In this document: in pieces, positions 34,408 to 58,554 of the stretch | Layout: each line of letters opens with the position of its first letter | Position numbering within the stretch: position 1 is the stretch's first letter | NCBI GenBank assembly: GCA_035623475.1 | Contig: DASPTK010000089.1 | Coordinates: 19,279-83,278, forward strand | DNA length: 64,000 bases | Origin: Gemmatimonadaceae bacterium | Lineage (GTDB): Bacteria > Gemmatimonadota > Gemmatimonadetes > Gemmatimonadales > Gemmatimonadaceae | Reading direction: 5' to 3' | Position numbers and translations under genes: made by a program | The notes under the pieces: generated by a model | Database searches by the model: none | What the model was told of the DNA's origin: nothing | What the model saw: the letters and a program-made list of their open reading frames with translations, nothing else

Positions 34408-34410
34408 ATC

Positions 34411-35362: not shown

Positions 35363-35387
35363 GCGCCTGGCCGGCGGCGCCGGTGTC

Positions 35388-36816: not shown

Positions 36817-36828
36817 CCGGAGGAGACG

Positions 36829-39342: not shown

Positions 39343-39353
39343 GCGGAACAAGG

Positions 39354-39988: not shown

Positions 39989-42700
39989 ATGGCTCCGGCA
40001 CTCGCCTCCGAACGCGATCGCGACATCCTGCGGTCGTTCGCGCGTCGGATCGATCCCTCCGACGCCGGGGCGCACAACAACCTCGGTGTCCTCTACTACC
40101 AGAAGGGGATGTACGAGGAGGCGGTCGGCTCGTTCACCAAGGCGCTCGAGCTCGATCCGAAGATGCAGGTGGCGCAGCGCAACCTGGAGATCGCGTACTT
40201 CAACACCGGCTACTACGACCGGCGCGTCTCCGAGCTACGCGAGCGGCTGCGCACCCATCCCGACGATCGCGATGCTCGTTGGGAGCTCGGTCGTGCCTAC
40301 GCGTCGCTCGGCGACGTGACCGAAGCGGTGACGGAGTTCACCGCGCTCCTCGAGTACTACCCCGACGACATCGGCGCCCTCGTCCAGCTGGGGCTCGCCG
40401 AGAAGTCGAGCGGCGATCTCGCCAAGGCGCAGTGCTGGTTCGACCGGGCGCTCGCGCTCGATGCGGACAGCCCGCTCATCAACTACTACTTGGGCGAGGT
40501 CCTCTACAACCGGGGGCTCAACGAGGATGCCCTCACCCGACTGCGCCGGTCGATCGAGCTGAGCCCGGACAACCCGGACGCGCACTACCTGGTGGGATTC
40601 GTGCTCGGCGACATGGGGCGTCACGACGAAGCCCGCGCCGCCACCAAGCGCGCGATCGAGCTCAATCCCTCGCTCTCACGGGCGCAGGCGAACCTCTCGC
40701 TCGACCACTATAGCTCGGCCAAGTACGGAGAGCTGGTGCCGGAACGCTCCGAGCGGCGCACGGCGCAGCTCGAGGTGGCCGACGGCCACCTGGCGCACTT
40801 CAATCTGGGGCTCGCCTTCCGCCAGAAGGGCTACTACGCCGAGGCCCTCAAGGAGTATCGGCTGGCGTTGGAGCGCAACGAGGACCGCGCCCTCGTGCTC
40901 CAGGCGATGGCCGAAGTGCACCTCCTGAAGCGGGACGCGACGGCGGCGGTGGAGCTCTACGACAAGATCCTCGGCGAGGAGCCGGTGAGCCCGAAGCTCT
41001 GGTGCGAGCGGGGCGTCGCGCTCCACCAGAACGGCAATCATGCCGAGGCGGCGGCGTCGTATCGGCGAGCGCTCGCCATCGACGCCACCTACGCGATCGC
41101 CCACAACAACCTCGGCGTGGCCCTCTTCCATGGCGGCGACAGCGACGGTGCTGTGGACTCGTTCCGGGCCGCGCTCGCGGCCCAGCCAGCCTTCGTGAAG
41201 GCGTGGCTCAACCTCGCGCTCCTCCTCTACAAGGGGAAGCGCCTCCAGTTGAGCCTCGATTCGTACCGCCAGGTGCTGACCGTGGAGCCGGAGCAGCCCG
41301 AGGCCTGGAACGGCATCGGCTTGGTGCTGGCCGAGCTGAAGAAGTTCGAGGATGCGCGCAACGCCTTCAGCCGGGCGATCCATGCGCGACCGGCGTTCGC
41401 CGAGGCGCACTACAACCTCGGCTTCACCCTCTCGAACCTCGGCGACTTCGACGGTGCACTCCGCGCGACCAAGCGCGCCCTCGAGCTCGACCCGTACTAC
41501 GTGGCGCAGAAGTTCGAGCTGGCGCTCGACCTCGAGTACGAGCACCCGGATCTCTCGATCGCCCCCGATCTCGGCGGCGCGCAGCGCACCGACGGCGGCA
41601 TCGATGCCTTCGCCTTCGATCCGCACCGCCTCGAATCGCTCTTCAGCGAGCTGGCGCCAGCGCCGACGCCCGCCGAGGAGGACGAGGAGGAGACGCCGAT
41701 CGAAAGCCCCTACACGATGGCGCTCGACTATCTGGCGAAGGGGATGCTCGACCGGGCGGCGGCCGAAGCGAATCGCGTCCTCGGTCGCGGCGGTGACAGC
41801 GCCGATGGACTCACCATTCTGGGCGACGTCTACTTCCGCCAGGGCGTCTTCGGTGAGGCGTTGGAGCGCTATCGCGCGGCCCGCAGCGCGAACGGCGTTG
41901 CGCCGCGGGCGCTGGCCGGCGAGGCCCGCGCGCTGTTGGCGCTCGGACGTTCCGATGAAGCCCGCGCGGTGGCCGAGTCGCTGCTCAAGGTCGACGACGC
42001 GAATGTCGAGTCGCTCCTCCTGGTCGCGAGTGCGCGGGCGCAGGCACGCGATCCGGCCGCGGCACGCGAGCTGTTGGCTGAGGCGCGCCGGCTCGCCCCG
42101 GCACGCGCTGACGTCATGAAGCAGCTCGGCGACGTCGCCCGCGCCGCCGGTGACCCGGATGGCGCGATTACCGCCTATCGGAACGCGCTCGATCTCGATC
42201 GCGACTTCGCACTCGTCCACTACGAGCTGGCCGGGCTCCTCGCGGCGCGAGGCGCCGGCGACGAGGCCGAGCGATCGCTGCTCTCGGCGCTCGATGCCGT
42301 TCCGACTTACGTCGAGGCGACTCTCGCGCTGGCCGCGCTCCGCCGGCGCCTCGGACGCGCCCGCGATGCGGTGCCGCCCCTCGCCGACCTGCTCCGACGC
42401 GACCCGAGCAACATCGACGCGCTCCTGCTACTGGCGCAGATCCTCGTCGAGCAGACGCGCCCTGCCGATGCCGCGGTCGCCATCGATCGCATTCTGCGCT
42501 TCGACCCGCGTCACGCCGGTGCCCTCTTCTTCCAGGGCATGCTCTTCGCCGACCAGCATCGCTATCGCGACGCGATCGGGCGCTGGCAGCGGGTCGTCGA
42601 GATCGCGCCGGACAGTGAGTGGGCGCAGCGCGCGCGCCGCGAGGCCCGCACCGCCGCCGATCTCCTGCGCATCTTTCGAAGCCGACAGGAGGCGCACTGA
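39989..42700 (+). CDS. large tetratricopeptide-repeat protein (903 aa)
   Basis: About 20 TPR-like 34-mers run through the protein (AHNNLGVLYYQKGMYEEAVGSFTKALELDP, AHYNLGFTLSNLGDFDGALRATKRALELDP etc.). No TM, HAMP or MCP signalling motif. Confidence 0.85.
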   Translation: MAPALASERDRDILRSFARRIDPSDAGAHNNLGVLYYQKGMYEEAVGSFTKALELDPKMQVAQRNLEIAYFNTGYYDRRVSELRERLRTHPDDRDARWELGRAYASLGDVTEAVTEFTALLEYYPDDIGALVQLGLAEKSSGDLAKAQCWFDRALALDADSPLINYYLGEVLYNRGLNEDALTRLRRSIELSPDNPDAHYLVGFVLGDMGRHDEARAATKRAIELNPSLSRAQANLSLDHYSSAKYGELVPERSERRTAQLEVADGHLAHFNLGLAFRQKGYYAEALKEYRLALERNEDRALVLQAMAEVHLLKRDATAAVELYDKILGEEPVSPKLWCERGVALHQNGNHAEAAASYRRALAIDATYAIAHNNLGVALFHGGDSDGAVDSFRAALAAQPAFVKAWLNLALLLYKGKRLQLSLDSYRQVLTVEPEQPEAWNGIGLVLAELKKFEDARNAFSRAIHARPAFAEAHYNLGFTLSNLGDFDGALRATKRALELDPYYVAQKFELALDLEYEHPDLSIAPDLGGAQRTDGGIDAFAFDPHRLESLFSELAPAPTPAEEDEEETPIESPYTMALDYLAKGMLDRAAAEANRVLGRGGDSADGLTILGDVYFRQGVFGEALERYRAARSANGVAPRALAGEARALLALGRSDEARAVAESLLKVDDANVESLLLVASARAQARDPAAARELLAEARRLAPARADVMKQLGDVARAAGDPDGAITAYRNALDLDRDFALVHYELAGLLAARGAGDEAERSLLSALDAVPTYVEATLALAALRRRLGRARDAVPPLADLLRRDPSNIDALLLLAQILVEQTRPADAAVAIDRILRFDPRHAGALFFQGMLFADQHRYRDAIGRWQRVVEIAPDSEWAQRARREARTAADLLRIFRSRQEAH

Positions 42701-43854
42701 TGGCGATCGAAGGACCGCTTCGCGAGCTCGGGATCCACGATGTCTTCCAGTTGCTCGATCTCAGCCGGAAGACCGGCATCCTGTCCATCACCTCACCCCT
42801 GCGCGACAACCAGGGGGCGGTCTTCTTCGAGCGTGGAGCGGTGGTCTTCGCCGCCATCCGCACGAATCCGCACCCACTCGGCGAGCTCCTCCTTCGCGCT
42901 GGCAAGATCACCGAGAGCGACCTTGCCCGGGCGCGCGACGCGCAGGCCCGCGGCGACGGTTCGAAGCGCCTCGGGGATCTGCTGGTGGAGGCCGGCGCGA
43001 TCTCCCGCAAGGAGCTGGAGCGCCAGGTCAGATTTCAGGTGGAAGAGGTGATCTTCGAGCTGATGTCGTGGCGAGAGGGATTCTTCTCCTTCGAGGAGCG
43101 CGCCGAGGTGGACGCTCCGGCGGAGGCCAACATCCGCATCTCCACGGAGTCGCTGCTGATGGAGGCCGCCCGCCGGATCGACGAGTGGTCGCGCATCGAA
43201 GCCAAGGTGCCGAACCTCGACGTCGTCGCCGTGCTCGCCGATGTCGGCGACGATCATCCGGGATTCCTCGAGCTGCTCCCGCGCGAATGGGAGGTACTCT
43301 CGGAGATCGATGGAGAGAGGAACCTGCGCGCGATCGCGCGGGCGATCGCCCACAGCGACTTCGACGTCGCGCGGGTGATCTACGGCTTGATCACCACCGG
43401 GATCGTCGCCCTCAAGACGGAGAGGCCTCTCGAGCCGGAGGCGGCACCTACCCCGACACCGGAGCCCGACGCGCCGGTGCTCGAGCCGGCACGTGAGGCC
43501 CTTCGCTCGGGCGACGCCGAGGGTGCTCTCGCGGCGGCGAACGCGGTGTTGACGGCCGACGTGGCGTCGGTGGAGGCGCGCCTGGTGGTCTCGCGCGCTC
43601 TGATGAAGCTGGGCCGGCCGATCGACGCCGCCGAAGCGCTCCGCGCGGCGCTCAACGGCGACGCGCTCAACCCGTCGCTTCATCGCGAGCTCGGATTCTG
43701 CGCGGCCTGGCGCGGCGACCTGCTCGCGGCCCTCGGAAGTTGGGAACGCTACCTCCGCATGCAGCCGGCGGCAGCGGACGCGTCGCACGTTCGGGCCGTC
43801 GCCGACGCCGCGTCTCGCTTGCGTGATCTCTTGCAGGAGCACCTGGATGTCTGA
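42700..43854 (+). CDS. PATAN/DUF4388 domain protein with C-terminal TPR-like region (384 aa)
   Basis: ATG 42700 shares 1 nt with the upstream TGA. N-terminus MAIEGPLRELGIHDVFQLLDLSRKTGILSITS...GAVFFERGAVVFA is the DUF4388 hallmark. Next is a helical insert LGELLLRAGKITESDLARA..RLGDLLVEAGAISRKELE. The C-terminus is TPR-like. Confidence 0.8.
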   Translation: MAIEGPLRELGIHDVFQLLDLSRKTGILSITSPLRDNQGAVFFERGAVVFAAIRTNPHPLGELLLRAGKITESDLARARDAQARGDGSKRLGDLLVEAGAISRKELERQVRFQVEEVIFELMSWREGFFSFEERAEVDAPAEANIRISTESLLMEAARRIDEWSRIEAKVPNLDVVAVLADVGDDHPGFLELLPREWEVLSEIDGERNLRAIARAIAHSDFDVARVIYGLITTGIVALKTERPLEPEAAPTPTPEPDAPVLEPAREALRSGDAEGALAAANAVLTADVASVEARLVVSRALMKLGRPIDAAEALRAALNGDALNPSLHRELGFCAAWRGDLLAALGSWERYLRMQPAAADASHVRAVADAASRLRDLLQEHLDV

Positions 43855-44692
43855 CCCGATCCGCCGTCTGAGCGAAGAGCTGGCGCGCGACCCGTCGAGC
43901 CTGGTGTTCCTGCAGCTCGGCGAGGCGCTGCGGCGTTCCGGCCAACTCGATCTCGCCTACAAGGTGGCTGTCCGCGGCCTGGAGCGGCACGCGCACAACG
44001 CCGACGCCCACGATCTCCTCGCCCGCATCTACGTCGATCGCGACGAGCTCCAGTCGGCCTTCGACGAATGGGACATGGTGCTGCGGCTCGCCCCGGCTCA
44101 CGTCGGCGCGCGCAAGGGGATGGGATACATCCTCTTCAAGCAAGGAAAGCTCGGCGCTGCCGAGGAGCAGCTCTCGACGGCGGCGTCGCAGGACAATGGC
44201 GATCCGTCGATCACCACGGCGCTCCGCATGGTGCGGCGCCTCCTCCGCTACGCGCCGAACCGCGACAACGGGGCGACGGCGCTCGGTCCGGCGGAGCTGG
44301 CAGCGGCGCAGCTCCGGGTCGAGGAGGAGGCCCGCCTCCTCTTCGCCGACATTCTCCGCGACGGCGAGCACACGGCGATGCTCCTCAACACCGACGGGAT
44401 GGTCACCGCCGGCGTCTACCTGACCAGCGATGGGCGGGATGTGGCCCAGGAGGTCGGCGCCCAGCTGAGCGGGGTGCGCGACGAGGCCGCGCGCGTCGTC
44501 AGGCATCTCGACCTCGGCGCGTGGAAGGCGATCGTCTACGAGACCGATGTCGCCACCGTCGCCCTCGGCCCGGCGCTCGACGACTCGCTGGTGCTGGTCG
44601 CGGCGGCTCGGAGCATCCCGCTCGGCTTCGTGCGCCGGGTGCTCGAGCGCTGTGTGCAGCGCGCCACCGCCTGGCTCGGGGAGGTCGGATGA
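43847..44692 (+). CDS. TPR + Roadblock/LC7 (MglB-like) fusion protein (281 aa)
   Basis: N-terminal TPRs (LVFLQLGEALRRSGQLDLAYKVAVRGLERHAHNADAHDLLARIYV..). The C-terminus LLFADILRDGEHTAMLLNTDGMVTAGVYL...VALGPALDDSLVLVAAARSIPLGFVRRVLE fits the Roadblock/LC7 pattern. Confidence 0.75.
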   Translation: MSDPIRRLSEELARDPSSLVFLQLGEALRRSGQLDLAYKVAVRGLERHAHNADAHDLLARIYVDRDELQSAFDEWDMVLRLAPAHVGARKGMGYILFKQGKLGAAEEQLSTAASQDNGDPSITTALRMVRRLLRYAPNRDNGATALGPAELAAAQLRVEEEARLLFADILRDGEHTAMLLNTDGMVTAGVYLTSDGRDVAQEVGAQLSGVRDEAARVVRHLDLGAWKAIVYETDVATVALGPALDDSLVLVAAARSIPLGFVRRVLERCVQRATAWLGEVG

Positions 44693-45036
44693 CATCGCCC
44701 TTCGAGGAGCTCCTCGCCTCGCTCATCCGCCACCGCGGCGTCCTCGGATGCATGGTGGTCGGCGAGAGCGATGGAATCATCGTCGATGCCAACGTCCAGG
44801 TAGGCATCCAGGCGAACCTGGTCGCCGCCCTGGCGGCCGCCCTTTATCGCAAGGCGAGGCTCAGTTCGGAGGCCGCCGGGTTGACCTCGGTGAACTTCCT
44901 CCAGCTCGAGGCGGAGCGGGGGCAGATCTGCGCGGCGGGGCGCGACGGCCTCGTGATCGTGACGGTGGCCGAGCCACGGGCGCAGATCGGGCTCATCCGC
45001 GGTGCGATGCTGCAGTCGGTGGAGGCGCTGGCGTGA
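44689..45036 (+). CDS. Roadblock/LC7 domain protein (115 aa, MglC-sized)
   Basis: ATGA overlap upstream. LIRHRGVLGCMVVGESDGIIVDANV..LVAALAAALYRKA..LQLEAERGQICAAGRDGLVIVTVAEPRAQIGLIRGAM is a canonical Roadblock fold pattern. Confidence 0.8.
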   Translation: MTSPFEELLASLIRHRGVLGCMVVGESDGIIVDANVQVGIQANLVAALAAALYRKARLSSEAAGLTSVNFLQLEAERGQICAAGRDGLVIVTVAEPRAQIGLIRGAMLQSVEALA

Positions 45037-45545
45037 GGACGCGCGTCGCCGAGCCGTGGGTCGAGCTTCCGCTCGAGCGCTTCGTGGACGATGCGCGCGT
45101 GCTCTTCGCTCTCCTCTTGCACCCGAGCGGCCAGGTCATGGGGCAATTCGGCTTCACGCGGGCGGTGGACGTGATGGCGGCGTGCGCCCTCGCTGCGGCC
45201 ATCCACGCCTCGGCTGGCCAGCTCGGCCGCGAGCTCGATGGGCACCCCTTCCGCGAGCTGTACCACGCCGGCCGCGAGCGCCAGATCTTCATCGGCGCGG
45301 TGAAATCGACGCGTGAGCCGTTGATCTTTCTCACCGCCTTCGCGGGAGAGAGCTCGCTGGGGCTCGTGCGGATCTACTTCGAGGAGCTCTGCGGCCGCCT
45401 CGGAGAATCCGAGCCGGCGCTCGAGACGCGGCCCGATGGTCTTCCCGTGGAGCTCGAGCGCGATCTGCATCGCAACCTGGCCATCCTCTTCGGTCGCGCC
45501 CTGCCGCAGTCGGGCGCCTCCGGTCCCGACACTCCCACCGCCTGA
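45033..45545 (+). CDS. mglB: MglB-like Roadblock/LC7 GTPase-activating protein (170 aa)
   Basis: GTGA overlap upstream, directly before mglA. YHAGRERQIFIGAVK...ESSLGLVRIYFEELCGRL parallels Myxococcus MglB FHEGAKDSLYMTIVG...TSLGLVRLRIKKASDEL (from memory). It has a C-terminal extension as in MglB. Confidence 0.75.
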   Translation: MRTRVAEPWVELPLERFVDDARVLFALLLHPSGQVMGQFGFTRAVDVMAACALAAAIHASAGQLGRELDGHPFRELYHAGRERQIFIGAVKSTREPLIFLTAFAGESSLGLVRIYFEELCGRLGESEPALETRPDGLPVELERDLHRNLAILFGRALPQSGASGPDTPTA

Positions 45546-45551
45546 GCGTCC

Positions 45552-46160
45552 GTGTCTCTCGTCAACTACACGACTCGCGAGATCACCTGCAAGATCGTCT
45601 ATTACGGCCCCGGGCGATCGGGGAAGACGACGAACCTGCATTACATTTACGAGCAGGTGCCGGGCGATCGAAAAGGGCGGATGGTGTCGTTGGCGACGCA
45701 GACCGACCGCACGCTGTTCTTCGATTTTCTGCCGCTCGACCTCGGCTCCATCTCCGGCTTTTCGACGCGCTTTCAGCTGTACACGGTGCCCGGCCAGGTC
45801 TACTACCAGACCACTCGCAAGCTTGTGCTGCACGGGGCGGATGGAGTGGTGTTCGTGGCCGACAGCCAGTCGCGGCAGCTCGACGAGAACGTGGAGAGCA
45901 TGCAGGACCTTCACGCCAACCTCGCCGACCATGGCATCGATGTGCGCGAAATGCCGCTGGTGATCCAGTACAACAAGCAGGATCTCCCCCGCGACCTGAT
46001 CCTGGCGAAGCCGGACCTCGACGACGCCCTGAACTTCCGGAACGTGCCGGCCTTCGGGGCGGACGCGCTGCACGGTGTGGGGGTCTTCGAGACGCTGCGC
46101 GGGATCTCGGAGCTCGTCCTTCGACGCCTCAGCACACCGACGGGCGTTGGGAGCCGCTAA
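45552..46160 (+). CDS. mglA: Ras-like small GTPase MglA
   Basis: 202 aa, alignable by eye along its whole length with Myxococcus Mgl[22 protein letters not shown] (P-loop), [12 protein letters not shown] (intrinsic Arg), YTVPGQVYY (TxxGQ instead of DxxGQ), [19 protein letters not shown]. Confidence 0.92.
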
Positions 46161-46161: not shown

Positions 46162-48087
46162 GTGGAGCTGGATCCCCGCTTCCGATTCGAGAACTACATC
46201 GTCGGATCGGCGAACCGGCTGGCGGTGTCGGCGGCTCGGGCCGTGGCCCAGGCGCCGGGGGCGGCCTACAACCCGCTCTTCGTCTACAGCAGCTCGGGAC
46301 TCGGCAAGACGCACCTCATGCTCGCCGTCGGCCACCTGGCGAAGCAGCTGCAGCCGTCGCTCTGCGTCGAATACGCCACTGTCGACGAGCTGGTGGAGGA
46401 GCTCAACACCGCCGTCGTGAGCGGCGCGATCGAGCAGTTCAAGCAGCGGTATGCGGCGGTCGACCTGCTCCTCCTCGACGACGTCCAGTTCCTCGCCGGA
46501 CGCCGCGAGACGCAGAGCGAGATGTTGCGGCTCTTCAACACCCTGCAGCGGAGCGGCAAGCAGATCGTCCTCACCAGCGACCGGCCGCCTAACGAGATCG
46601 CCGACCTCGATGACCGGCTGATCACACGCTTCTCGGGCGGCCTGGTGGTGGATGTCGGAGCTCCCGACTACGAGACGCGGGTCGCCATCCTCCGCACGAA
46701 GTGCGAGGAGCGCGGGGCCCAGTTCGAGGCGGGCGTGCTCGACGAGATGGCGCGCATCGACTTCGCCAACGTGCGTGAGCTGCAGGGAGCGCTCAACCGG
46801 CTGATCGCCTATCAGACGCTCGGCGAAACGAAGGTCACCGTGCGCAACGTCCGCGAGCTCCTCGGCGACAAGGCCGATCGAGGAGACGGCGCCAGCGGCG
46901 CGGCGCGCGGCGAGGAGTTCGCCAGCTTCCTCTCCGATCTGAGTGAGGTCGTCGCCCAACACATCGACACCTGGCGGGTGCGCGTGGTCGAGGCGATGAC
47001 GTATTGGCACCAGCTCGGGTACGCGACGGCGATGCTCGAGCGTACGCTCGAGGGGACCGAGGAGCCGGACGTCGAGGCGCTCCTCTCGCGCTACGAGGCG
47101 GCCATCGCCAGGCTCCGCGCCCTCGAGCAGGAGGCGACGGGAATCAATCCGTCGCTCGCCGCCGCCGAGGTCTTCAAGGATCCGGAGCGTGTGGGGGAAG
47201 CGGAGCTGATCGTCGCCCGAATGATCGGCGGCGCCGAGGCCCCTCCGGGACCGCAGAGCCAGTTCACCCGCGCCGAGTTCGAGGTCGGCCCCTCGAACCA
47301 GCTCGCGGTGCACGCGGCCGACAGCATCGTCGCCGAGCCGGGGAAGAAGTACAACCCACTCTTCGTGCACGGCCCGCCGGGATCCGGAAAGACCCATCTC
47401 CTCAACGCGCTCGGCAACGAGCTGGTCGCGCAGAGCGGTGGGGCGATGACGGTCGCCTGTGTCAACGCCCGCCAGTTCGTGGACGAGCTGATTGCCGCGC
47501 TCCACGACGGCACCATCGAGCGTTGGCGCGCCCGTTATCGCGTGGTCGATGCGCTCATCCTCGATGACGTCGACGTCTGCGCCGGCAAGGAGCGCTCGCA
47601 GGAGGAGCTCTTCCACGTCTTCAACAGCCTCTTCGCCAGCGGGCGCCAGATCGTGCTCGCCAGCCGCCACGCGCCGAAGACCGTGGACCGACTCGAGGAT
47701 CGCCTGCGGTCGCGCTTCGAGGGCGGACTCGTCGTCGAGATCCAGGCCCCCGATCTCTCTCTTCGCGAACGCCTGACGGCGCGCTACCTGAGCCAGGCCG
47801 GCATTCGGCCCGACCGCGCCCTGCTCGACTACATCGCGTCACGCCCCGCCGAGAGCGCGCGTGAGGTGGCGGCGACGGTGGAACGCGTGGTCCAGTCGGC
47901 GCAGGTGGTGGGCGTTCCCCTCAACGCCGTCTTCGCCCGCAAGGAGCTCGAGGGGGGCTCGGCGCAGCCCGCCGCCGACCGCGCGGTCGCCGACGCGCGG
48001 GTGGCCGATCCGTTCTTCCTCGATCGCGAGAAGGTGGTGTGGGACTGGCCTGAGGTCCCGGGCCGGGCCATCGAGGACTTCCGCTGA
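46162..48087 (+). CDS. tandem DnaA/Hda-type AAA+ ATPase (two domain-III modules, no domain I or IV; 641 aa)
   Basis: GTG 46162 lies 1 nt after the mglA stop. Module 1: FENYIVGSANRLA, SGLGKTHL, VDLLLLDDVQFL, IVLTSDRPP, RLITRFSGGLVVDV, NVRELQGALNRL. Module 2: FEVGPSNQLA, GPPGSGKTHL, VDALILDDVDV, IVLASRHAP, RLRSRFEGGLVVEI. There is no DnaA-box-binding HTH region. Confidence 0.8.
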   Translation: MELDPRFRFENYIVGSANRLAVSAARAVAQAPGAAYNPLFVYSSSGLGKTHLMLAVGHLAKQLQPSLCVEYATVDELVEELNTAVVSGAIEQFKQRYAAVDLLLLDDVQFLAGRRETQSEMLRLFNTLQRSGKQIVLTSDRPPNEIADLDDRLITRFSGGLVVDVGAPDYETRVAILRTKCEERGAQFEAGVLDEMARIDFANVRELQGALNRLIAYQTLGETKVTVRNVRELLGDKADRGDGASGAARGEEFASFLSDLSEVVAQHIDTWRVRVVEAMTYWHQLGYATAMLERTLEGTEEPDVEALLSRYEAAIARLRALEQEATGINPSLAAAEVFKDPERVGEAELIVARMIGGAEAPPGPQSQFTRAEFEVGPSNQLAVHAADSIVAEPGKKYNPLFVHGPPGSGKTHLLNALGNELVAQSGGAMTVACVNARQFVDELIAALHDGTIERWRARYRVVDALILDDVDVCAGKERSQEELFHVFNSLFASGRQIVLASRHAPKTVDRLEDRLRSRFEGGLVVEIQAPDLSLRERLTARYLSQAGIRPDRALLDYIASRPAESAREVAATVERVVQSAQVVGVPLNAVFARKELEGGSAQPAADRAVADARVADPFFLDREKVVWDWPEVPGRAIEDFR

Positions 48088-49712
48088 TGGCGATCAAGGG
48101 CAGTCTCCGCGAGGCTAGTCTCCCCGACGTCCTGCAGCTCCTGGCGATGGGGCAGAAGACCGGCTGCCTCAGCGTCACCGACCGCAACAACTTCGGCTAC
48201 ATCTACTTCGACAAGGGGCGCATCTCGTACGCCTCGATCGTCAATCGTCGCGATCGTCTCGGCGACACGCTGGTGAAGAACGGCGTCATTACCCAGCTCG
48301 AGCTCGATGTGGCGGTCGACTCGCAGTCGCGCGGCCAGCGCAACAAGAAGCTCGGCGAGATCCTGATCGAGCAGAACATCCTCACCCGCGAGGAGCTGCA
48401 CCGCTACATCCGGGTCCAGATCGAGGAGGCCGTCTACTATCTCTTCACCTGGACACAGGGGACGTTCAGCTTCGAGGCGGAGATGCGCCCCGAGGACCAC
48501 GACGTCCTCGTCTCGATCAACCCCGAGTCGCTCCTCCTCGAGGGCGCGCGGCGGGTGGACGAGTGGAGCCTGATCGAGAAGAAGGTGCCGAGCTTCGACC
48601 TCATCTTCGAGGTCGATCGGGCCCGCCTGGCGACGAGCGAGGCGCAGCTCACGCGGGCCCAGGAGCAGCTGGTGCCGCTCATCGATGGGCGACGCGACGT
48701 GTCGCAGCTCATCGACGCCTCCGGGCTTGGAGAGTTCGAGGTCGGCAAGGCCCTCTATGCGCTGGCGACGGCCGGCTTCCTGCACCTCACCGGAAAGTCG
48801 CGTCCCGCCGATGACACGATGCGCGAGGCGCGCGTCGAGGAGCACCGGAACCTCGGTGTCGCCTTCTACAAGACGGCGATGTTCGAGGAGGCGACGCGCG
48901 AGCTGCGGCGGGTGGTGGAGCTCAACGACGGCGACGTGCATGCGCGCTTCTTCCTCGGGCTGGTCGCGATGCGGGAGGGGAAGTGGAGCGAGGCGGTGCT
49001 CGTACTTCGTGAGGCATCATCGCTCCCAGGGGCGAAGCACGCCGTCTTCCACAACCTGGCGTACGCGCTCGAGCGCCTCGGCCGGTACGAGGATGCAAGG
49101 GTCGCGTTGGACGAGGCGGTCGCGCGAGGCGGCGAGGACGATCCGCGCGTGCGGACATCGCTCGGGGTGCTGGCCCTCAAGGCCGGCGATCTCGAGGAGG
49201 CCGTCGCGTGCTTCGGCGCCGCCCGGACGCTCTGGGGGAAGAGGGCGCCGTCGGCGGCATGGTTCCACTACGCCGCGCTCGCGGCGGCCCTCGCCGGCGA
49301 GCTCCCGCGCGCGGTGACGCTGGCGACCGAGGGGCTCCAGTCGCATCCGCACGCCGGTGCGCTCTGGAACACGCTCGCCGTTCTCGAGGAGCGACGGGGT
49401 GACTTCACCGCCGCTGGCCAGGCGGCCGACCAGGCGCTGCACGACGACGGGACTCTGCCGCAGGTGCACAAGAACATCGGCGACGGGCACTACCGCGCCT
49501 CGCGCTACGACGAGGCGCTCGAAGCGTATCAGCGGGCGATCAAGCTGAATCCGGCGCTCGGCGGGGACGTCTACTTCAAGCTCGGCAACATCCGCTTCAA
49601 GTGGCAGGAACGGGAGCAGGCGGTGGCGTACTGGGAGCGGGCGCTCGCGCTCAACCCGGAGAACGACGTGATTCGGGCGAATCTGGATCTCGTCAAGTCG
49701 ACGCCGGCATGA
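48087..49712 (+). CDS. PATAN/DUF4388 domain protein with C-terminal TPR array (541 aa)
   Basis: N-terminus MAIKGSLREASLPDVLQLLAMGQKTGCLSVTD..GYIYFDKGRISYA is paralogous to the 42700 gene. Helical insert LGDTLVKNGVITQLELDVA..KLGEILIEQNILTREEL. About 7 TPRs follow. The ATG shares 1 nt with the upstream TGA. Confidence 0.8.
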   Translation: MAIKGSLREASLPDVLQLLAMGQKTGCLSVTDRNNFGYIYFDKGRISYASIVNRRDRLGDTLVKNGVITQLELDVAVDSQSRGQRNKKLGEILIEQNILTREELHRYIRVQIEEAVYYLFTWTQGTFSFEAEMRPEDHDVLVSINPESLLLEGARRVDEWSLIEKKVPSFDLIFEVDRARLATSEAQLTRAQEQLVPLIDGRRDVSQLIDASGLGEFEVGKALYALATAGFLHLTGKSRPADDTMREARVEEHRNLGVAFYKTAMFEEATRELRRVVELNDGDVHARFFLGLVAMREGKWSEAVLVLREASSLPGAKHAVFHNLAYALERLGRYEDARVALDEAVARGGEDDPRVRTSLGVLALKAGDLEEAVACFGAARTLWGKRAPSAAWFHYAALAAALAGELPRAVTLATEGLQSHPHAGALWNTLAVLEERRGDFTAAGQAADQALHDDGTLPQVHKNIGDGHYRASRYDEALEAYQRAIKLNPALGGDVYFKLGNIRFKWQEREQAVAYWERALALNPENDVIRANLDLVKSTPA

Positions 49713-50521
49713 CGACCGATCAGAGCGTCGACATGGCCTTCATCGCCCTCACGGCCAAGATCTCCCGTGATCGCGGCTTTCGCTGCGCGAGCTACAAGGA
49801 CAAGTGTCTACGGCGCCGGATCGCCGTGCGGATGCGCGCCCACGGCGTGCACACCTACGGCGACTACGCCCGCGTGCTCGACGCCGTGCCTCACGAGTAC
49901 GACCTGCTGATCGATGCGCTGACGATCAACGTCACCAAGCTCTTTCGGAACTGGGAGACCTTCGCCGCCATCGAGAAGAGCGTCGCGCCGGTCCTCTTCG
50001 CGCGCGATGAGACGCGCTTGCGGGTCTGGAGCGCCGGCTGCGCATCGGGGGAGGAGGCCTACTCGCTGGCGATCCTCTTCCACCGCTACGCCCTGGCGAA
50101 CCGAAAGCGCGTGGAGCGTGTGCACGTCGTCGGTACCGACATCGATCGGGCGAGTCTCGCCGCCGCCGAGCAGGGCGCCTTCGGCGAGGCGGCGTTCGCC
50201 GACACCCCGGCGGAGCTGCGGCAGCTCTACTTCTCGCCGCGCTCGCCCCACGTCGTCGCGCCGGAGGTCCGCGCGATGGTGCGCTTCAAGCGCCATGATC
50301 TTCTTCACGAGCCGGCGCCGGAGGGGCAGCACCTCATCACCTGCCGCAACGTGGTGATCTACTTCGATCGGGACTCGCAGGAAGCCCTGTTCGAGCGGTT
50401 CGCGGACGCGCTTCTCCCCGGTGGCGTCCTCGTCCTCGGCAAGGTTGAGACGCTGCTCGGCGCCGCGCGCGCCCGCTTCGCGGCGATCGACGGACGTCAA
50501 CGCATCTTCCGGCGCCTGTGA
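49709..50521 (+). CDS. cheR: chemotaxis protein methyltransferase CheR
   Basis: ATGA overlap upstream. TKLFRNWETF, RVWSAGCASGEEAYSLAI (SAM site), ITCRNVVIYFD. Confidence 0.9.
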   Translation: MTTDQSVDMAFIALTAKISRDRGFRCASYKDKCLRRRIAVRMRAHGVHTYGDYARVLDAVPHEYDLLIDALTINVTKLFRNWETFAAIEKSVAPVLFARDETRLRVWSAGCASGEEAYSLAILFHRYALANRKRVERVHVVGTDIDRASLAAAEQGAFGEAAFADTPAELRQLYFSPRSPHVVAPEVRAMVRFKRHDLLHEPAPEGQHLITCRNVVIYFDRDSQEALFERFADALLPGGVLVLGKVETLLGAARARFAAIDGRQRIFRRL

Positions 50522-51000
50522 CCGAGACGAGAGTGCGGGTGGCCGATGCCGCCGTCCTCCGCGGTGTGGGGATCCTCTCCACCGTGGGGCTCGGCTCCTG
50601 CGTCGCCATCGCTCTATACGATCCGGAGGCCGCCGTGGGGGGGCTCGCGCACATCATGCTCCCCAGCGAGACGATGTCGAAGGACCGGTGCAATCGCGCC
50701 AAGTTTCCGTCGAGCGCCGTTCCGCTCCTTCTCGAACGCATGCGCGGGTTGGGCGCGCGCGATGAGCGCATCCGCGCCCGGATCGTCGGTGGGGCGAGCA
50801 TGTTCACGTCGCTCCTCCCCGCCGGCGGCCTCCAGATGGGGGAGCGGAATCTCCTCGCCACGCGTACCGCGCTGGCCCGCGCCCAGATTCCGATCATTGC
50901 CGAGGAGGTGGGGGGCGAGCACGGCCGCAGCGTCTACCTCCACGTCGGCGACGGACGGCTCGAGGTGCGCTCGATGATGAGGGGCAATGTCGTCCTCTAG
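50518..51000 (+). CDS. cheD: chemoreceptor glutamine deamidase CheD
   Basis: GTGA overlap upstream. GLGSCVAIALYD (catalytic Cys), GLAHIMLP (His), GGASMF. Confidence 0.88.
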   Translation: MTETRVRVADAAVLRGVGILSTVGLGSCVAIALYDPEAAVGGLAHIMLPSETMSKDRCNRAKFPSSAVPLLLERMRGLGARDERIRARIVGGASMFTSLLPAGGLQMGERNLLATRTALARAQIPIIAEEVGGEHGRSVYLHVGDGRLEVRSMMRGNVVL

Positions 51001-52108
51001 TCCCGTGCGCACGGTCCTGGTGGTGGACGACAGCGCCTTCATGCGCAAGCTCGTGTCGGAGATGATCGATGCGAGCGGCGAGTTTCGCGTCGTCGGAACG
51101 GCGCGCAACGGCATCGATGCGCTCAAGAAGGTGCACGCCCTCGATCCGGACATCGTCACCCTCGACGTCGAGATGCCGGAGCTCGACGGGATCGGCGCCC
51201 TCGGCTACATCATGAGCGAGTCGCCGCGGCCGGTGGTGATCCTGAGCGGTGCGGCGACGGGAGCGGCCGACGACGTCACGATCCGGGCGCTCGAGCTCGG
51301 TGCCGTCGAGTTCGTCCGCAAGCCGTCGGGTCCGATCAGCCTCGATCTCCCGGCGGTGCGCGATCAGCTGCTCGACGCATTGCGAGCGGCGGCGCAGGTG
51401 AACCTCCGCAGTGTCGACCCGTTGGCGCGTCCGACGATCGGCGGCCCGGCCACGCGCGTGCCGCGCTCCGAGGCGTGGGCCAACCGCGCGATCGCCATCG
51501 CCTCGTCCACCGGCGGGCCGCGCGCGCTGGCGGAGGTCATTCCCCATCTGCCGGGCGACCTCGACGCGGCGGTGCTCGTCGTGCAGCACATGCCCGCAGG
51601 CTTCACGCGCAGCCTCGCCGAGCGCCTCGATGCGCAGAGCCGCCTCGCCGTTCGTGAGGCGCGTCATGGCGAGCGGCTCGTGCGGGGACGAGTCTACGTC
51701 GCCCCGGGCGGATATCACATGCGGGTGGCGGCGGAGCAGGGTGGCCCGACGATCGCTCTCGACGACTCGCCGCCGATCTGGGGCGTGCGTCCGGCCGCCG
51801 ATCCGCTCTTCCGGTCGCTCGCCGAGCATTTCCGGGAGGGGGCAGTCGGCGTCGTGCTCACCGGGATGGGGCGCGATGGAGCGGTGGGGCTGCGGGCCAT
51901 CCACGACGCCGGCGGTCTGGGGATCGCGCAGGATCGGGAGACCTCGATCATCTTCGGCATGCCGCACGCCGCCGCCACCGGCGGTGGTGCATCGCGGATC
52001 CTCCCGCTGGCGGAGATCGCGCCGGCGCTCGTGGCCGCGTGTACGCCCGGTCAGGCGGTGGCGGGAGAATCGTCGGACCCGCGCCAGCCGACGAGGGCCG
52101 GGCCATGA
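50987..52108 (+). CDS. cheB: protein-glutamate methylesterase/deamidase CheB (REC + esterase)
   Basis: VLVVDDSAFMR, DIVTLDVEMPELDG (REC). ASSTGGPRAL (Ser), VVQHMPAGFT (His), TGMGRDG (Asp). Confidence 0.92.
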   Translation: MSSSSPVRTVLVVDDSAFMRKLVSEMIDASGEFRVVGTARNGIDALKKVHALDPDIVTLDVEMPELDGIGALGYIMSESPRPVVILSGAATGAADDVTIRALELGAVEFVRKPSGPISLDLPAVRDQLLDALRAAAQVNLRSVDPLARPTIGGPATRVPRSEAWANRAIAIASSTGGPRALAEVIPHLPGDLDAAVLVVQHMPAGFTRSLAERLDAQSRLAVREARHGERLVRGRVYVAPGGYHMRVAAEQGGPTIALDDSPPIWGVRPAADPLFRSLAEHFREGAVGVVLTGMGRDGAVGLRAIHDAGGLGIAQDRETSIIFGMPHAAATGGGASRILPLAEIAPALVAACTPGQAVAGESSDPRQPTRAGP

Positions 52109-52605
52109 CGGTCGGGGCGCCGAGCGGCCGACGGGAGGGAGCGCCGGAGGGCTCCGAGACCCTCCTTCCCGAACATCTGCTCTTCCGCATCGGGGTCGAG
52201 CTCTTCGCCATCCCCCTCGCCCACGCGGAGGAAGCGGTGGAGGGCCTCCTGTGGGATGTCCTCCCCGACCTGCCTTTCGGAGTGCTCGGCGTCGCGACTC
52301 TTCGCGGGCGACTCCTTCCCGTGTATTCTCCCCAGCGGCCGCTCGGGATCGAGCGCAGCGATCCGTACGGCGTGACACTCGTGCTGCGTCACGAGCATCG
52401 CGCACTCGGCTTCGCCGTGGACGATGTGGAGGACGTGCTGAGCGTTCCGCCGGAATCGATTCGCCCGGCGCCGCTCCCGGACACCGGGGAGCGCGTGGTG
52501 CGGGGAGTGGTGCGGCACGGCGACGAGCTCGTCGCGCTGCTCGATACCGCTGCGCTCTTCCGGGCCTGCGGCGTCGGCGATGGCGAGAGAGGAGGCGCCG
52601 GATGA
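52105..52605 (+). CDS. cheW: CheW-like protein (copy 2, 166 aa)
   Basis: ATGA overlap with the cheB stop. LLFRIGVELFAIPLAHAEEAVE...VLGVATLRGRLLPVYS..ALGFAVDDVEDVL fits the CheW pattern. It has a ~25 aa N-terminal extension. Confidence 0.8.
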   Translation: MTVGAPSGRREGAPEGSETLLPEHLLFRIGVELFAIPLAHAEEAVEGLLWDVLPDLPFGVLGVATLRGRLLPVYSPQRPLGIERSDPYGVTLVLRHEHRALGFAVDDVEDVLSVPPESIRPAPLPDTGERVVRGVVRHGDELVALLDTAALFRACGVGDGERGGAG

Positions 52606-53078
52606 GCGCATCACCGAGTCAGCTGGTCACCTTCCGCCTCGGGCCCGATCGCTTCGCCGCCGACATCTTCGCCGTCGAGCGCGTGCTTCGATACACGCCG
52701 CCGACGCCGGTGCCCAATCTGCCGGAGTGGCTGGCCGGCGTGCTCGACTACCAGTCGCGTGTGGTTCCGGTGCTCGATCTGCGGGCCCGCCTGGGTCTGG
52801 AGCGGGCGGCGCCGCGCCTCGAGACGAGGATCATCGTCTTCTCGGTCGACGATGACTGGATCGGCGCCGTGGTGGACGCGGTGCTGGAGGTGGTTCCCCT
52901 CGCGGCGGGCGAGCTCTCCCCCCCGCCGCCGCTCTTTCGTGGGCTGGCGGCCGACTATCTGCTCGGACTCGTCAGGCGACCGGACGGCCTGCTGATCGTC
53001 CTGGATGTCCGACGCCTGCTGACGGCCACGGAACGGCTCGCTCTGACGCGGGCGGAGGAGGCGGCGCGCGGTGGCTGA
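52602..53078 (+). CDS. cheW: CheW-like protein (copy 3, 158 aa)
   Basis: ATGA overlap upstream. LVTFRLGPDRFAADIFAVERVLRYTPPTPVPNLPEWLAGVLDYQSRVVPVLDLRARLG..WIGAVVDAVLEV. Confidence 0.85.
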   Translation: MSASPSQLVTFRLGPDRFAADIFAVERVLRYTPPTPVPNLPEWLAGVLDYQSRVVPVLDLRARLGLERAAPRLETRIIVFSVDDDWIGAVVDAVLEVVPLAAGELSPPPPLFRGLAADYLLGLVRRPDGLLIVLDVRRLLTATERLALTRAEEAARGG

Positions 53079-53937
53079 CACGCCGACCACGGCTCTCCGT
53101 GCCCGCTTCGCGGCCATCGAGGCACGGCTCGAAAGCCCGAACGCCGCCGCCGAGCGCGACACGCTCAAGGCGGACATCATCGCCCTCTTCCGACTGGCCG
53201 AGGGGGAGATCGCGAGCCTGACGACGCTGCGCGAGGACATCAAGAAGCTCGTCGAGAGATGGAAGCAGCTCCAGCAAGCGGCTGCGCCATCGAACGCGCC
53301 CGTGTTCAGCGGCGACCGGCCCAACGTGGTGACCGACCACATCGGGGCCTCGACCTTCGTCGAGAAGGGGTGGAACTCGATCTCGCTGGGCGACTACGAC
53401 GGCGCGGAGCGCGCCCTGACCAAGGCCCTCGAGCTCTCGCCCAACGACCCGCAGACCGAATCGCTTCTCGGCTGGTCGCAGATGCTCCAGGAGAAGTACG
53501 ATCAGGCGCTGCTCAACTTCCAGCGCGTGCTGATGCGGCAACCGACGAACTCTCTCGCCCGCATCAACCTCGGGTACATCTGCCTCAAGAAGCGCATCTT
53601 CGGAGAGGCGATCGAGCACCTGTCCAAGGCGATCCGCCTCGACAACGATCGAAAGGCGACGCTCTACGCGCATTTCTACCTCGGGCTGGTGTACGCCGAG
53701 CGGGAGATGTTCGAGGATGCGCAGACGTTCTTCCGGAAGACGCTGGCCCTCGGCCCAAACCTGATCGAGGCCTACTACGAGCTGGGGCGCGCGCTCTGGT
53801 TCGATGGCAAGCAGGAAGAGGCGAAGCAGGCGTGGCGCGATGGGTTGGCGGCCAACAAGTTCAATCCATGGGGCAAGCGGTGCGGCGAGATGCTCAAGCA
53901 CGTCGAGCAGGGAGGCGTGCCCGCGCGGTCCGCCTAG
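53071..53937 (+). CDS. coiled-coil + TPR repeat protein (288 aa)
   Basis: The GTG start overlaps the cheW3 end by 8 nt. TPRs: GWNSISLGDYDGAERALTKALELSPNDP, INLGYICLKKRIFGEAIEHLSKAIRLD, YYELGRALWFDGKQEEAKQAWRDGL. Confidence 0.8.
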   Translation: MADTPTTALRARFAAIEARLESPNAAAERDTLKADIIALFRLAEGEIASLTTLREDIKKLVERWKQLQQAAAPSNAPVFSGDRPNVVTDHIGASTFVEKGWNSISLGDYDGAERALTKALELSPNDPQTESLLGWSQMLQEKYDQALLNFQRVLMRQPTNSLARINLGYICLKKRIFGEAIEHLSKAIRLDNDRKATLYAHFYLGLVYAEREMFEDAQTFFRKTLALGPNLIEAYYELGRALWFDGKQEEAKQAWRDGLAANKFNPWGKRCGEMLKHVEQGGVPARSA

Positions 53938-53942: not shown

Positions 53943-54926
53943 GTGGTGGCGCTCGCGGTGCCGGCCGCCGCCCGGCGCGTCGATCCGCCCCAGCGCCTGA
54001 CGAGTGGCCGCTTCACGATGGTCGCGTACGCCTCCGACCTTCCGCTCGCGCGAAGCCTCCTCGACAGCGCGCTGGCCCACGACAGCTTCCCGGGGCTCCC
54101 TCGTCCGACCGCTCCGGTGACCGTCGCCGTCGCCCCCGATACCCGGCGCTTTCGCGAATGGGCAGGGGAGGGCGCTCCCGAGTGGGGAGCCGCGATCGCC
54201 ATCCCCGCCGAGTGGCGCGTGGTGATGCAGGGACGCTCGGCGGGAAGCGATGCCGGCAATCCCTTCTCCGTGCTGCGCCACGAGCTCGCGCACCTCGCCC
54301 TCCACGAGTACCTCGACGATCTGCCGCCGCGATGGTTCGACGAAGGCTACGCCAGCCTCTGCGCCCGCGAGTGGGGACGGGATGAGGTGCTGGCGGCGAG
54401 CGTCGGCCTGCTGCTGCATGGCGTGCCTTCGCTCGACTCGCTCGATGCCGGCTTCACCGGCGGCGCGATGCGCGCCAGCACCGCCTATGCGCTCGCCTAC
54501 CGGGCGGTGGCCGATCTCGCCGCGCTCGACCCGGAGCGCGGGCTCACACTCTTCTTCGGCTACTGGCGCAGCACCGGCTCGATCGATCGCGCGATGCGCG
54601 AGGCATACGGCCTGACGGAGAGCGCCTTCGAGATCGAATGGCGCCGACGGACCATGCAGCGCTACGGAGCGCTCGCCCTTACGGCCAACCTGTCGCTCGC
54701 CCTGGCCATCATGGGAATCCTCATCGGCCCCTTCTGGCTGGCGCGCCGGCAGCGCGATCGGGCGAAGCTCGACGCGATGCGCCGCGACGAGGCGGCGGCC
54801 GAGCGAGCCGAGCGCGAAGGAATCATCGCCTCGCTTCTGGGAGAATCTCCCACCGACGGGCCCACCTCGAGTGCCCAGCGAGCGCCTCCGGGCGAACATC
54901 GCGAGCGTGGGGGCGATTCGACGTAA
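53943..54926 (+). CDS. MA-clan (Peptidase_MA_2-like) zinc metallopeptidase with C-terminal TM anchor
   Basis: GTG 53943 (or CTG 53940) gives a signal-like VVALAVPAAA. HELAHLALHEY followed by WFDEGYASL (HExxH...E). TM ALALTANLSLALAIMGILIGPFWLA, then a charged tail. Confidence 0.65.
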   Translation: MVALAVPAAARRVDPPQRLTSGRFTMVAYASDLPLARSLLDSALAHDSFPGLPRPTAPVTVAVAPDTRRFREWAGEGAPEWGAAIAIPAEWRVVMQGRSAGSDAGNPFSVLRHELAHLALHEYLDDLPPRWFDEGYASLCAREWGRDEVLAASVGLLLHGVPSLDSLDAGFTGGAMRASTAYALAYRAVADLAALDPERGLTLFFGYWRSTGSIDRAMREAYGLTESAFEIEWRRRTMQRYGALALTANLSLALAIMGILIGPFWLARRQRDRAKLDAMRRDEAAAERAEREGIIASLLGESPTDGPTSSAQRAPPGEHRERGGDST

Positions 54927-58551: not shown

Positions 58552-58554
58552 CCC

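Follow-up and report, generated by a model that had tools for sequence, protein, structure and literature searches.

A protein composed of two DnaA-type ATPase modules and devoid of DNA-targeting domains is encoded directly downstream of mglA, within a chemosensory and polarity operon of a Gemmatimonadaceae bacterium. The analyzed stretch of DNA, hereafter referred to as the window, comprises 64,000 nucleotides (nt) of contig DASPTK010000089.1 (GCA_035623475.1; positions 19,279–83,278, forward strand). Within the window, the gene in question occupies positions 46162..48087 on the + strand, with GTG as start and TGA as stop codon, as deduced from its translation as well as from Pfam and NCBIfam matches. 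Its product of 641 amino acids (aa) is termed the double ATPase in the following. Based on domain content, conservation among relatives and gene neighborhood, it is proposed that the double ATPase may act as an ATP-gated switch in the control of cell polarity; for this explanation taken whole, i.e., identity, genomic context and polarity-switch role together, a probability of about 0.55 is estimated. Its first part, namely that the protein is DnaA-derived, DNA-blind and belongs to this genomic context, is regarded as highly probable.

The ATPase core of DnaA is the textbook case of a module with a single job, namely opening of the replication origin, and the paralogues of this core known to us (Hda, DnaC/DnaI and IstB) all still act on DNA or on DnaA. 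The double ATPase, which was found phylum-wide, appears to break this pattern, being duplicated, free of DNA-targeting domains and tied to signalling genes. If the proposed role is true, an initiator-type nucleotide switch would have been re-purposed for the spatial regulation of the cell, and a new, testable polarity component would be at hand outside Myxococcus, in a soil-abundant and barely studied phylum. An original prediction, made from the DNA sequence alone, had considered the arrangement to be undescribed. This is in line with the literature searched, in which no description of DnaA-like ATPases associated with MglA, PATAN, MshEN or pili was found. The sole trace is the entry 'PATAN>MglA>-PATAN>' at GAU_1409 of G. 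aurantiaca, the middle gene of which was left unnamed (Wuichet & Sogaard-Andersen 2014, Table S2).

Two DnaA domain III modules without DNA-targeting domains

Translation of positions 46162–48087 yielded all motif strings given in the original prediction, and the gene junctions described there were likewise read in the sequence. At the 5' end, the TAA stop of mglA ends at 46160 and is followed by a single C and the GTG of the ATPase gene at 46162, with the sequence GGGAG located 9–13 nt upstream of this GTG. At the 3' end, the junction reads TGATG, in which the stop codon (48085–48087) and the ATG of the next PATAN gene (48087–48089) have one base in common.

Pfam reported Bac_DnaA twice within the protein (E 2.4e-106). 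Module 1 and module 2 share 37% identity over 235 aa (E 9e-48), and, compared to domain III of the E. coli and B. subtilis DnaA proteins, module 1 is 42–45% and module 2 is 37–38% identical (key residue numbers of the E. coli reference were checked). Both modules align to these domains with one single-residue gap only; since the alignment is essentially gapless, the helical insertion specific to initiators is kept in both. Among solved structures, the best sequence matches were also those to DnaA domain III (E 2.8e-61), with Hda reaching only E ~1e-5. An AlphaFold model built on a family alignment of 45 sequences showed a mean predicted local distance difference test (pLDDT) value of 87, compared to 42 only for a single-sequence run. 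One of its modules superimposed on B. subtilis domain III (8bv3) with a template modelling (TM) score of 0.94 and a root-mean-square deviation of 1.5 Å. The presence of two complete domain III modules, as originally predicted, was thus supported by Pfam, the near-gapless alignment and the structural model. Walker A and B motifs, arginine finger and sensor II were recognized in both modules of the window protein; this includes the sensor II arginine of module 2, which had been described as degenerate and is in fact present. Hence, the motifs place the double ATPase in the initiator clade of AAA+ proteins and make a function as ATP-binding switch plausible.

Matches to the remaining DnaA domains were not obtained. 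No Pfam match to DnaA_N (PF11638) was found on the protein, whose module 1 begins at residue 3, and Bac_DnaA_C (PF08299) was matched neither by the whole protein at E≤0.01 nor by linker and tail at E≤1. Moreover, comparison of the linker and tail profiles with a DnaA domain IV profile by means of hhalign returned probabilities of 0.3% and 0.9%, respectively. With these negative results, the predicted lack of domains I and IV held. A cryptic domain IV in linker or tail was ruled out by hhalign (<1%) and Pfam.

The DnaA model TIGR00362 reached a total of 506.9 bits for the double ATPase (cutoff 343.9), because two partial domain III matches, one per module and each confined to model positions ~103–339 of 437, are summed. 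The model over-calls the double-module architecture. The Hda model TIGR03420 remained below its cutoff (174.4 versus 194.8 bits), and other Hda models (NF051883 etc.) scored at most 69 bits against cutoffs of 268–300. Furthermore, no β-clamp-binding motif of the QL[SP]LPL type was seen by eye at the N-terminus (MELDPRFRFENY), a dedicated motif search not having been made. Given the Hda score and the N-terminus, the label 'Hda-type' of the original prediction was abandoned in favor of a DnaA-derived protein. Helicase-loader models were below cutoff as well (IS21 helper 105 versus 200, DnaC 41 versus 357 and DnaI 52 versus 228 bits), and PADLOC returned generic AAA matches only (≤27 bits). A defence-system or mobile-element ATPase was ruled out by the generic nature of the PADLOC matches and by the fixed chromosomal position of the gene in two orders.

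The identical deposited protein (P0001) is named 'DnaA/Hda family protein [Gemmatimonadaceae bacterium]', and for many members of the family the JGI name is 'chromosomal replication initiator protein DnaA'. Such systematic mis-annotation as DnaA can mislead origin prediction in Gemmatimonadota as well as marker-gene analyses based on TIGR00362. A second DnaA homologue was not found within the 64-kb window. Canonical DnaAs featuring DnaA_N and Bac_DnaA_C appeared as separate proteins in the same search, the nearest being P0266. Considering the missing domains, these genomes presumably encode a normal dnaA beside the double ATPase. It is very unlikely that the double ATPase itself functions as replication initiator or origin-binding protein.

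Protein architecture

All elements of the protein described in this section are given with their positions on the + strand. Module 1 spans aa 3–235 (46168..46866) and carries Walker A SSSGLGKT, Walker B LLLLDD, box VII DRLITRF and sensor II NVRELQ. Its Walker A motif (P-loop; SSSGLGKT) covers aa 43–50 (46288..46311), and box VII with the arginine finger (DRLITRFSGGL) covers aa 151–161 (46612..46644). Module 2 extends from aa 365 to 598 (47254..47955), the corresponding motifs being GPPGSGKT, LILDD, DRLRSRF and SAREV; here, Walker A (GPPGSGKT) is located at aa 404–411 (47371..47394) and box VII with the finger (DRLRSRFEGGL) at aa 513–523 (47698..47730).

The two modules are joined by the linker of ~130 aa that had been noted originally, but this linker is not featureless. 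It starts with a disordered, weakly conserved spacer (aa 237–267; 46870..46962; pLDDT <50), which varies between 11 and 99 aa in the family, and continues with a folded, all-helical middle domain (aa 268–358; 46963..47235; pLDDT ~90) that is also evident from conservation. The length of the middle domain is nearly constant, namely 92–99 aa in the family and ~90 aa in the window protein, and positions W271, G286, L318, D340-P341 and A347 are near-invariant across the phylum. Pfam assigned it to no known family, HrpJ being matched below threshold only (E 0.023).

Module 2 is followed by a further disordered spacer (aa 599–621; 47956..48024; pLDDT <50; 9–206 aa in the family) and a conserved C-terminal peptide (aa 622–641, REKVVWDWPEVPGRAIEDFR; 48025..48084), which is always located at the extreme C-terminus. 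This peptide of 19–20 aa was found in 231 of 234 full-length relatives representing two orders, with the consensus [WF]-F-[LP]-[DS]-x-E-K-V-V-W-x-W-P-x-[VIL]-x-x-R-x-[IV]-E-[ED]. After alignment of the 231 members on 'WP', E(-6) was conserved in 98%, R(+6) in 86% and E(+9) in 93% of them. Being short, invariant and strictly terminal on a flexible tether, the peptide bears the signature of a docking motif.

Conservation of ATP sites and arginine fingers

Motifs were counted in 278 full-length relatives, including 115 Longimicrobiales-like proteins and 116 members of the window's own clade; the sensor II column of module 2 was misaligned in the 278-sequence alignment, and smaller alignments were used for that position. 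In module 1, the Walker A lysine and the first Walker B aspartate were present in all sequences (278/278 each), sensor II arginine in 272 and the arginine finger in 260 of them. Module 2 likewise retained its box VII arginine finger (267/278). Its Walker A lysine was found in 138 of the 278 sequences.

Among the Longimicrobiales-like proteins, the Walker A lysine of module 2 was missing throughout (0/115) and the Walker B aspartate was present once (1/115). Examples of this decay are WSKRPELGRT in place of GPPGSGKT and LLVHG in place of LILDD; the lid of module 2 appears truncated in addition. Box VII of the same modules (DERLRSRFEGGL) was intact in 115/115. In the window's own clade the motifs of both modules are intact, yet the module 2 lysine is missing in 13 of the 116 relatives. 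Finally, neither finger is left in the P0162/P0176-like proteins, a small divergent lineage in which both ATP sites are kept. As far as these residues tell, the ATP site of module 2 is evolutionarily dispensable across the phylum, whereas that of module 1 is the universal feature, module 2 probably representing primarily a finger-bearing partner. For studies on the logic of tandem AAA+ proteins, the family offers a natural series comprising proteins with two live sites, proteins with a dead module 2 and proteins devoid of both fingers.

Operon context and conserved partner genes

The double ATPase gene is part of a same-strand array with the order cheW-cheY-cheA-cheC/X-TPR(903)-PATAN(384)-TPR(281)-mglB-like-Roadblock-like(170)-mglA-2xDnaA-PATAN-TPR(541)-cheR-cheD-cheB-cheW-cheW-TPR(288)-peptidase_MA-like (protein lengths in aa), in which genes overlap or nearly abut. 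With a genuine MglA, Roadblock and PATAN neighbors and a complete Che phosphorelay, the originally predicted placement in a motility/polarity operon was corroborated, and the double ATPase gene is translationally coupled both to mglA and to the following PATAN gene. The mglA gene (45552..46160, +) encodes a Ras-like GTPase matching M. xanthus MglA with E 5e-74.

Conservation of the operon was analyzed by scanning one genome per GTDB species. Relatives of the double ATPase are encoded in 271 of these genomes, and synteny was determined for the best 80 of the 271. By means of tblastn with 19 operon proteins, gene order was found to be unchanged throughout these 80 loci. The mglA gene is located directly upstream of the double ATPase in 73/73 Gemmatimonadaceae loci with enough flanking sequence, and the PATAN-TPR gene directly downstream in 70/70 testable Gemmatimonadaceae loci. 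Two distant Gemmatimonadota loci (L084 and L086; ~34% identity) contain the same operon, again with mglA directly upstream; one of the two is devoid of cheA/W/R/D/B. In L086, cheY and cheC are kept and the kinase is gone.

Three reduced loci (L092, L093 and L094; proteins P0192, P0160 and P0384) contain no mglA, mglB or che genes. Of the operon, only the double ATPase, the PATAN-TPR protein and the peptidase_MA-like protein are still encoded there, with an additional Roadblock gene upstream in one locus; all three loci are found at the same chromosomal spot (divIVA...ileS-rluD). By name, L094 belongs to Longimicrobiales, and the names of relatives place all three in Gemmatimonadota. The peptidase_MA-like gene was detected in L084, L086, L092, L093 and L094. 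Since the reduced loci retain this trio and lack mglA, the invariant partner of the double ATPase is PATAN-TPR and not MglA. The association with MglA emphasized in the original prediction therefore stands for Gemmatimonadaceae, in which both genes are adjacent in every testable case, but does not define the family as a whole. What has stayed fixed in evolution is a translationally coupled trio consisting of the double ATPase as first gene, PATAN-TPR and the metallopeptidase-like protein; the envelope of MglA and Che genes is either an elaboration of Gemmatimonadales or a loss in Longimicrobiales.

The second trio member, a PATAN-TPR protein of 541 aa (48087..49712, +), contains a tandem MshE-type motif for binding of cyclic di-GMP (c-di-GMP) at aa 57–111. 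A second PATAN protein of 384 aa with an MshE-related c-di-GMP motif is encoded upstream (42700..43854, +). Both proteins score above the cutoff of NF053729, an NCBIfam model for MshE-related c-di-GMP binding, and the tandem motifs reside in insertions of their PATAN domains (RLGDTLVKNGVITQLELDVAVDSQ and KLGEILIEQNILTREELHRYIRVQ; 48255–48419 and 42874–43038, respectively) following the pattern RLGxxL...Q / KLGxxL...Q. These motifs suggest that the whole module may respond to c-di-GMP. The third trio member is a Peptidase_MA_2-like protein (53958..54926, +) featuring the zinc-binding motif HELAH and, at its C-terminus, a predicted hydrophobic helix, which is followed by a charged low-complexity tail. 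This protein may serve as membrane anchor of the complex.

Distribution and origin of the family

The best 80 of the 271 relatives were all full-length and showed 53–74% identity to the window protein. Their names refer to Gemmatimonadaceae, Gemmatimonadales or Gemmatimonadota/-etes, with three titled only 'bacterium'. An exhaustive, profile-free search of 1.8 billion representatives recovered the two-module architecture of ~640 aa down to 32–35% identity, and it was shared by the distant members (32–40% identity), one of which is named Gemmatimonadales. As far as names show, the family is limited to Gemmatimonadota, including Gemmatimonadales and Longimicrobiales.

A crude neighbor-joining tree, calculated without bootstrap and only suggestive, placed all modules 1 in one clade and all modules 2 in another, with canonical DnaA nearer to module 1. 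The separation into two clades indicates one duplication before the family diversified. The double ATPase is a lineage-specific DnaA paralogue in which an ancestral domain III was duplicated in tandem, domains I, II and IV being absent. A different case is represented by P0174 (673 aa), in which two domain III modules occur together with a genuine domain IV that shares 50% identity with that of E. coli. Its modules are each other's closest relatives, and a real DnaA appears to have undergone a tandem duplication of its own here.

Links to type IV pili and MshEN-DnaA fusions

DnaA-type modules were also encountered in three gene clusters together with pilus genes (L087:1738-16490, L090:9016-22760 and L091:5053-17986). 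The order in these clusters is pilD, MshEN+2xDnaA (~920 aa), MshEN-only (~420 aa), a single DnaA-ATPase (246–418 aa), a giant MshEN+2xDnaA protein (1876–1990 aa), TonB_C and pilB. In the giant proteins of 1876 and 1990 aa, an MshEN domain at the N-terminus is combined with two modules of the DnaA type. The neighborhoods of the clusters contain the type IX secretion markers SprA_N and Por_Secre_tail, and a small upstream gene of one cluster, with matches to the HHH_3 family, was read as ComEA-like. No description of an MshEN-DnaA-pil cluster was found in the literature searched. In the neighbor-joining tree, the MshEN-linked modules fall with canonical DnaA and may therefore represent a separate recruitment.

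Furthermore, two PilB-PATAN fusions (P0330 and P0331) combining MshEN, T2SSE and PATAN were identified, one of them originating, by name, from a metagenome-assembled genome of Nitrospirae. These fusions provide a hint that PATAN domains may act on the pilus motor. PATAN response regulators are reported to bind to the type IV pilus motor in Synechocystis (bioRxiv 10.1101/2021.06.11.447907). Type IV pilus genes were reported for Gemmatimonadota from all environments but marine ones (PMC10581226). In summary of both gene arrangements, DnaA-type modules are tied to MshEN-type c-di-GMP elements and pilus/polarity genes in two settings, namely fused and adjacent. It is tentatively put forward that DnaA-type AAA+ modules constitute an unrecognised class of regulators for type IV pili or polarity that was recruited at least twice, namely in Gemmatimonadota and in the MshEN-fusion lineage, although this generalization is somewhat doubtful.

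Proposed mechanism

Domain III of DnaA acts as a slow nucleotide switch; in its ATP-bound form, it associates head-to-tail with further copies of itself, the arginine finger of one module completing the ATP site of the next. Module 1 of the double ATPase is proposed to serve as nucleotide switch and module 2 as a built-in partner that would read or trigger the nucleotide state of module 1. This assignment follows from the invariant ATP site of module 1 and the finger that module 2 keeps without a site of its own. Such an arrangement would represent an intramolecular analogue of Hda acting on DnaA-ATP. When bound to ATP, the protein would assume a shape or form an oligomer that serves as a platform. 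Docking of the C-terminal peptide is envisaged on a conserved partner, for which the TPR array of PATAN-TPR is the most plausible candidate, and membrane attachment of the complex would be provided by the metallopeptidase-like protein. In Gemmatimonadaceae, signals from c-di-GMP (via the PATAN insertions), from MglA-GTP/MglB and from the Che pathway would converge on this platform. The output would lie in how a surface or motility machine is polarized, type IV pili being the probable candidate. The odds for this ATP-gated switch or scaffold, operating with PATAN-TPR and the peptidase-like protein and wired to MglA, MglB and Che, are considered to be about even.

Several points weigh against the proposed role. 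The structural model has a predicted TM score (pTM) of 0.50, and pairing of the module 2 finger with the module 1 site was derived from conservation alone. The loss of fingers in the P0162/P0176-like lineage means that the logic of a built-in finger is not universal. The finger of module 1 is kept (260/278) even beside a dead module 2 site, which makes higher-order or hetero-oligomerization equally possible. No pilus genes were found within the window, and the link to pili is one by association; the separate look of the MshEN-linked modules makes them a weaker guide to function. Docking of the tail onto the TPR array is a guess, and a polarity-switch function is, for any member of the family, a prediction from sequence.

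Alternative explanations

The alternative that survives best, although unlikely, is a role in regulating replication initiation. In this case, the double ATPase would be a DnaA domain III decoy or an Hda-like factor that co-assembles with the DnaA-ATP filament. It could cap the filament, titrate DnaA or stimulate hydrolysis by its fingers and would thereby couple polarity, chemosensory and c-di-GMP signals to the cell cycle. This view is favored by the similarity of module 1 to DnaA domain III (42–45% identity, with box VII, both arginines and sensor II kept) and by conservation of the module 1 finger even where module 2 offers no live partner site. Moreover, phylum-wide, the operon is located between divIVA...ileS-lspA-rluD and a division and cell-wall cluster (rsmH in the window, rsmH-ftsL-ftsI-murE in relatives), although this adjacency may be mere conserved housekeeping synteny. 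However, the tightly coupled neighbors are all PATAN, TPR, Roadblock, MglA or Che proteins, none of them with a role in replication. Likewise, no β-clamp motif was seen by eye, the Hda model remained below cutoff, and DnaA-type modules elsewhere are fused to N-domains of pilus ATPases and not to replication proteins. The more specific variant, in which the double ATPase still recognizes genuine DnaA via its AAA+ and finger surfaces and couples the polarity, c-di-GMP and chemosensory hub to initiation, is quite unlikely. If true, it would constitute a direct molecular bridge between the direction of the cell and the time of chromosome copying. A link between polarity and the cell cycle had been suggested in the original prediction; nothing in the present analysis supports it.

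It is highly improbable that the double ATPase handles nucleic acids, with tandem modules wrapping single-stranded DNA (ssDNA) in an ATP-dependent filament, and acts on DNA that a pilus-related machine takes up or moves. Both modules keep the initiator-specific insertion, module 2 of the window protein features K-E-R at the positions of E. coli K243–R245, and one MshEN-DnaA cluster lies beside pilD, pilB and the gene read as ComEA-like from its HHH_3 matches. Across the family (45 sequences), however, equivalents of the ssDNA-contacting residues V211, K243 and R245 of E. coli are only loosely conserved. The V211 equivalent was found in 20/45 and 12/45 and the K243 equivalent in 28/45 (as Arg) and 14/45 sequences for the two modules, and the R245 equivalent is Glu in module 1 and Arg in 29/45 in module 2. 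In addition, the Gemmatimonadota operon is devoid of competence genes, and module 2 is degenerate throughout one order.

An ordinary or mis-called gene, i.e., either the genuine DnaA of the genome in unusual form or a helper of the IstB/DnaC kind belonging to a mobile element or defence system, might be read from the TIGR00362 score (506.9 bits versus cutoff 343.9), the JGI naming as initiator DnaA and the weak IstB_IS21 and PADLOC matches, but is extremely improbable, as the DnaA score sums two domain III matches with domains I and IV absent, canonical DnaAs are distinct proteins in the same search, the mglA of the same arrangement in G. aurantiaca T-27 is GAU_1409, chromosomal synteny is fixed across two orders, and the IstB (105 bits versus cutoff 200) and PADLOC (generic AAA, ≤27 bits) matches are insufficient.

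Comparison with known systems

Each module of the double ATPase corresponds to a full DnaA domain III with Walker A and B, the sensor I region, box VII with both arginines, sensor II and the insertion. In contrast to DnaA, the double ATPase contains this domain twice, without domains I, II and IV, and adds a helical middle domain and a C-terminal peptide. It also differs from DnaA in being encoded with mglA and PATAN rather than with dnaN or the origin, and in the decay of the module 2 site in one order. Hda resembles the double ATPase as a DnaA paralogue that consists of domain III only and has no DNA-binding domains. With its finger acting on the ATP of another DnaA-type module, Hda is the closest analogue of a module 2 left with its finger only. 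However, Hda is a single module with an N-terminal β-clamp motif, its gene context is unrelated to the operon described here, and the double ATPase is much closer to DnaA.

Type II AAA+ proteins (p97/Cdc48, NSF, ClpB) likewise contain two modules per chain, often one catalytic and one degenerate or structural. In contrast to the double ATPase, they belong to another clade and form closed hexameric unfoldases; their structural match to the double ATPase is generic (TM 0.25–0.29), and the DnaA-type insertion favors, in DnaA, open helical assemblies. As in the MglA/MglB module of M. xanthus, a genuine MglA, MglB-like Roadblock proteins, TPR proteins and a Che phosphorelay are joined in the window operon. 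In Myxococcus xanthus, Frz chemosensory input feeds MglA/MglB (PMC3441718), which is the same logic as in the window operon. Unlike the window operon, the M. xanthus module as described in the papers retrieved contains no AAA+ ATPase, and none of the accessory proteins RomR/RomX, MglC, SgmX and FrzS resembles the double ATPase, which moreover persists in relatives without mglA.

PATAN regulators (PatA, PixG/PixE-type) and MshEN receptors are partners and not homologues of the double ATPase, and no PATAN system with a DnaA-type ATPase was reported in the literature searched. Like the double ATPase, the MshEN-DnaA proteins lack domain IV and contain DnaA-type modules, in most cases as tandem copies, which are joined to an MshEN-type element and motility genes. 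They differ from it in size (246–1990 aa), in their long spacers and in lacking the middle domain and C-terminal peptide of the Gemmatimonadota type.

Further genes of the operon and its surroundings

The upstream end of the operon consists of cheW, cheY, cheA and cheC/X (36415..39986, +), followed by the gene for the 903-aa TPR protein (39989..42700, +). Downstream of PATAN-TPR, cheR, cheD, cheB and two cheW genes (49709..53078, +) are located. In total, the che set between 36415 and 54926 comprises cheA, cheY, three cheW, cheR, cheB, cheD and cheC/X. A receptor gene for a methyl-accepting chemotaxis protein was found neither in the operon nor among the larger open reading frames (ORFs) of the window that were scanned. 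The 288-aa TPR protein (53071..53937, +) is kept in the core locus.

Upstream of mglA, a 115-aa mglB-like Roadblock/LC7 protein (44689..45036, +) is encoded next to a 170-aa protein (45033..45545, +), which shows a weak Roadblock/LC7 match (E 1.9e-4, just below the cutoff) and conserved synteny and is regarded as a second MglB-like candidate. The preceding TPR protein of 281 aa (43847..44692, +) has a weak Roadblock-like match at its C-terminus. Counting the 115-aa protein, its 170-aa neighbor and the C-terminal part of the TPR protein (match on the 289-aa ORF, 43823–44692), the locus may thus encode up to three Roadblock-fold proteins. These three putative Roadblock-fold proteins recall MglB/MglC pairs.

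The operon is flanked by divIVA-PNP-ileS-dksA-like-lspA-rluD on its upstream side (29721–36395) and by rsmH on its downstream side (57317–63340). Behind rsmH, relatives carry ftsL-ftsI-murE, and the window contains three further large ORFs. This flanking position is kept in the relatives with ~34% identity, and its upstream side also in the three reduced loci. Further upstream, a CdaA-type diadenylate cyclase, i.e., a synthase of cyclic di-AMP, is encoded next to folP and ftsH (26221–27051); it was also observed in L094 and probably represents unrelated housekeeping synteny.

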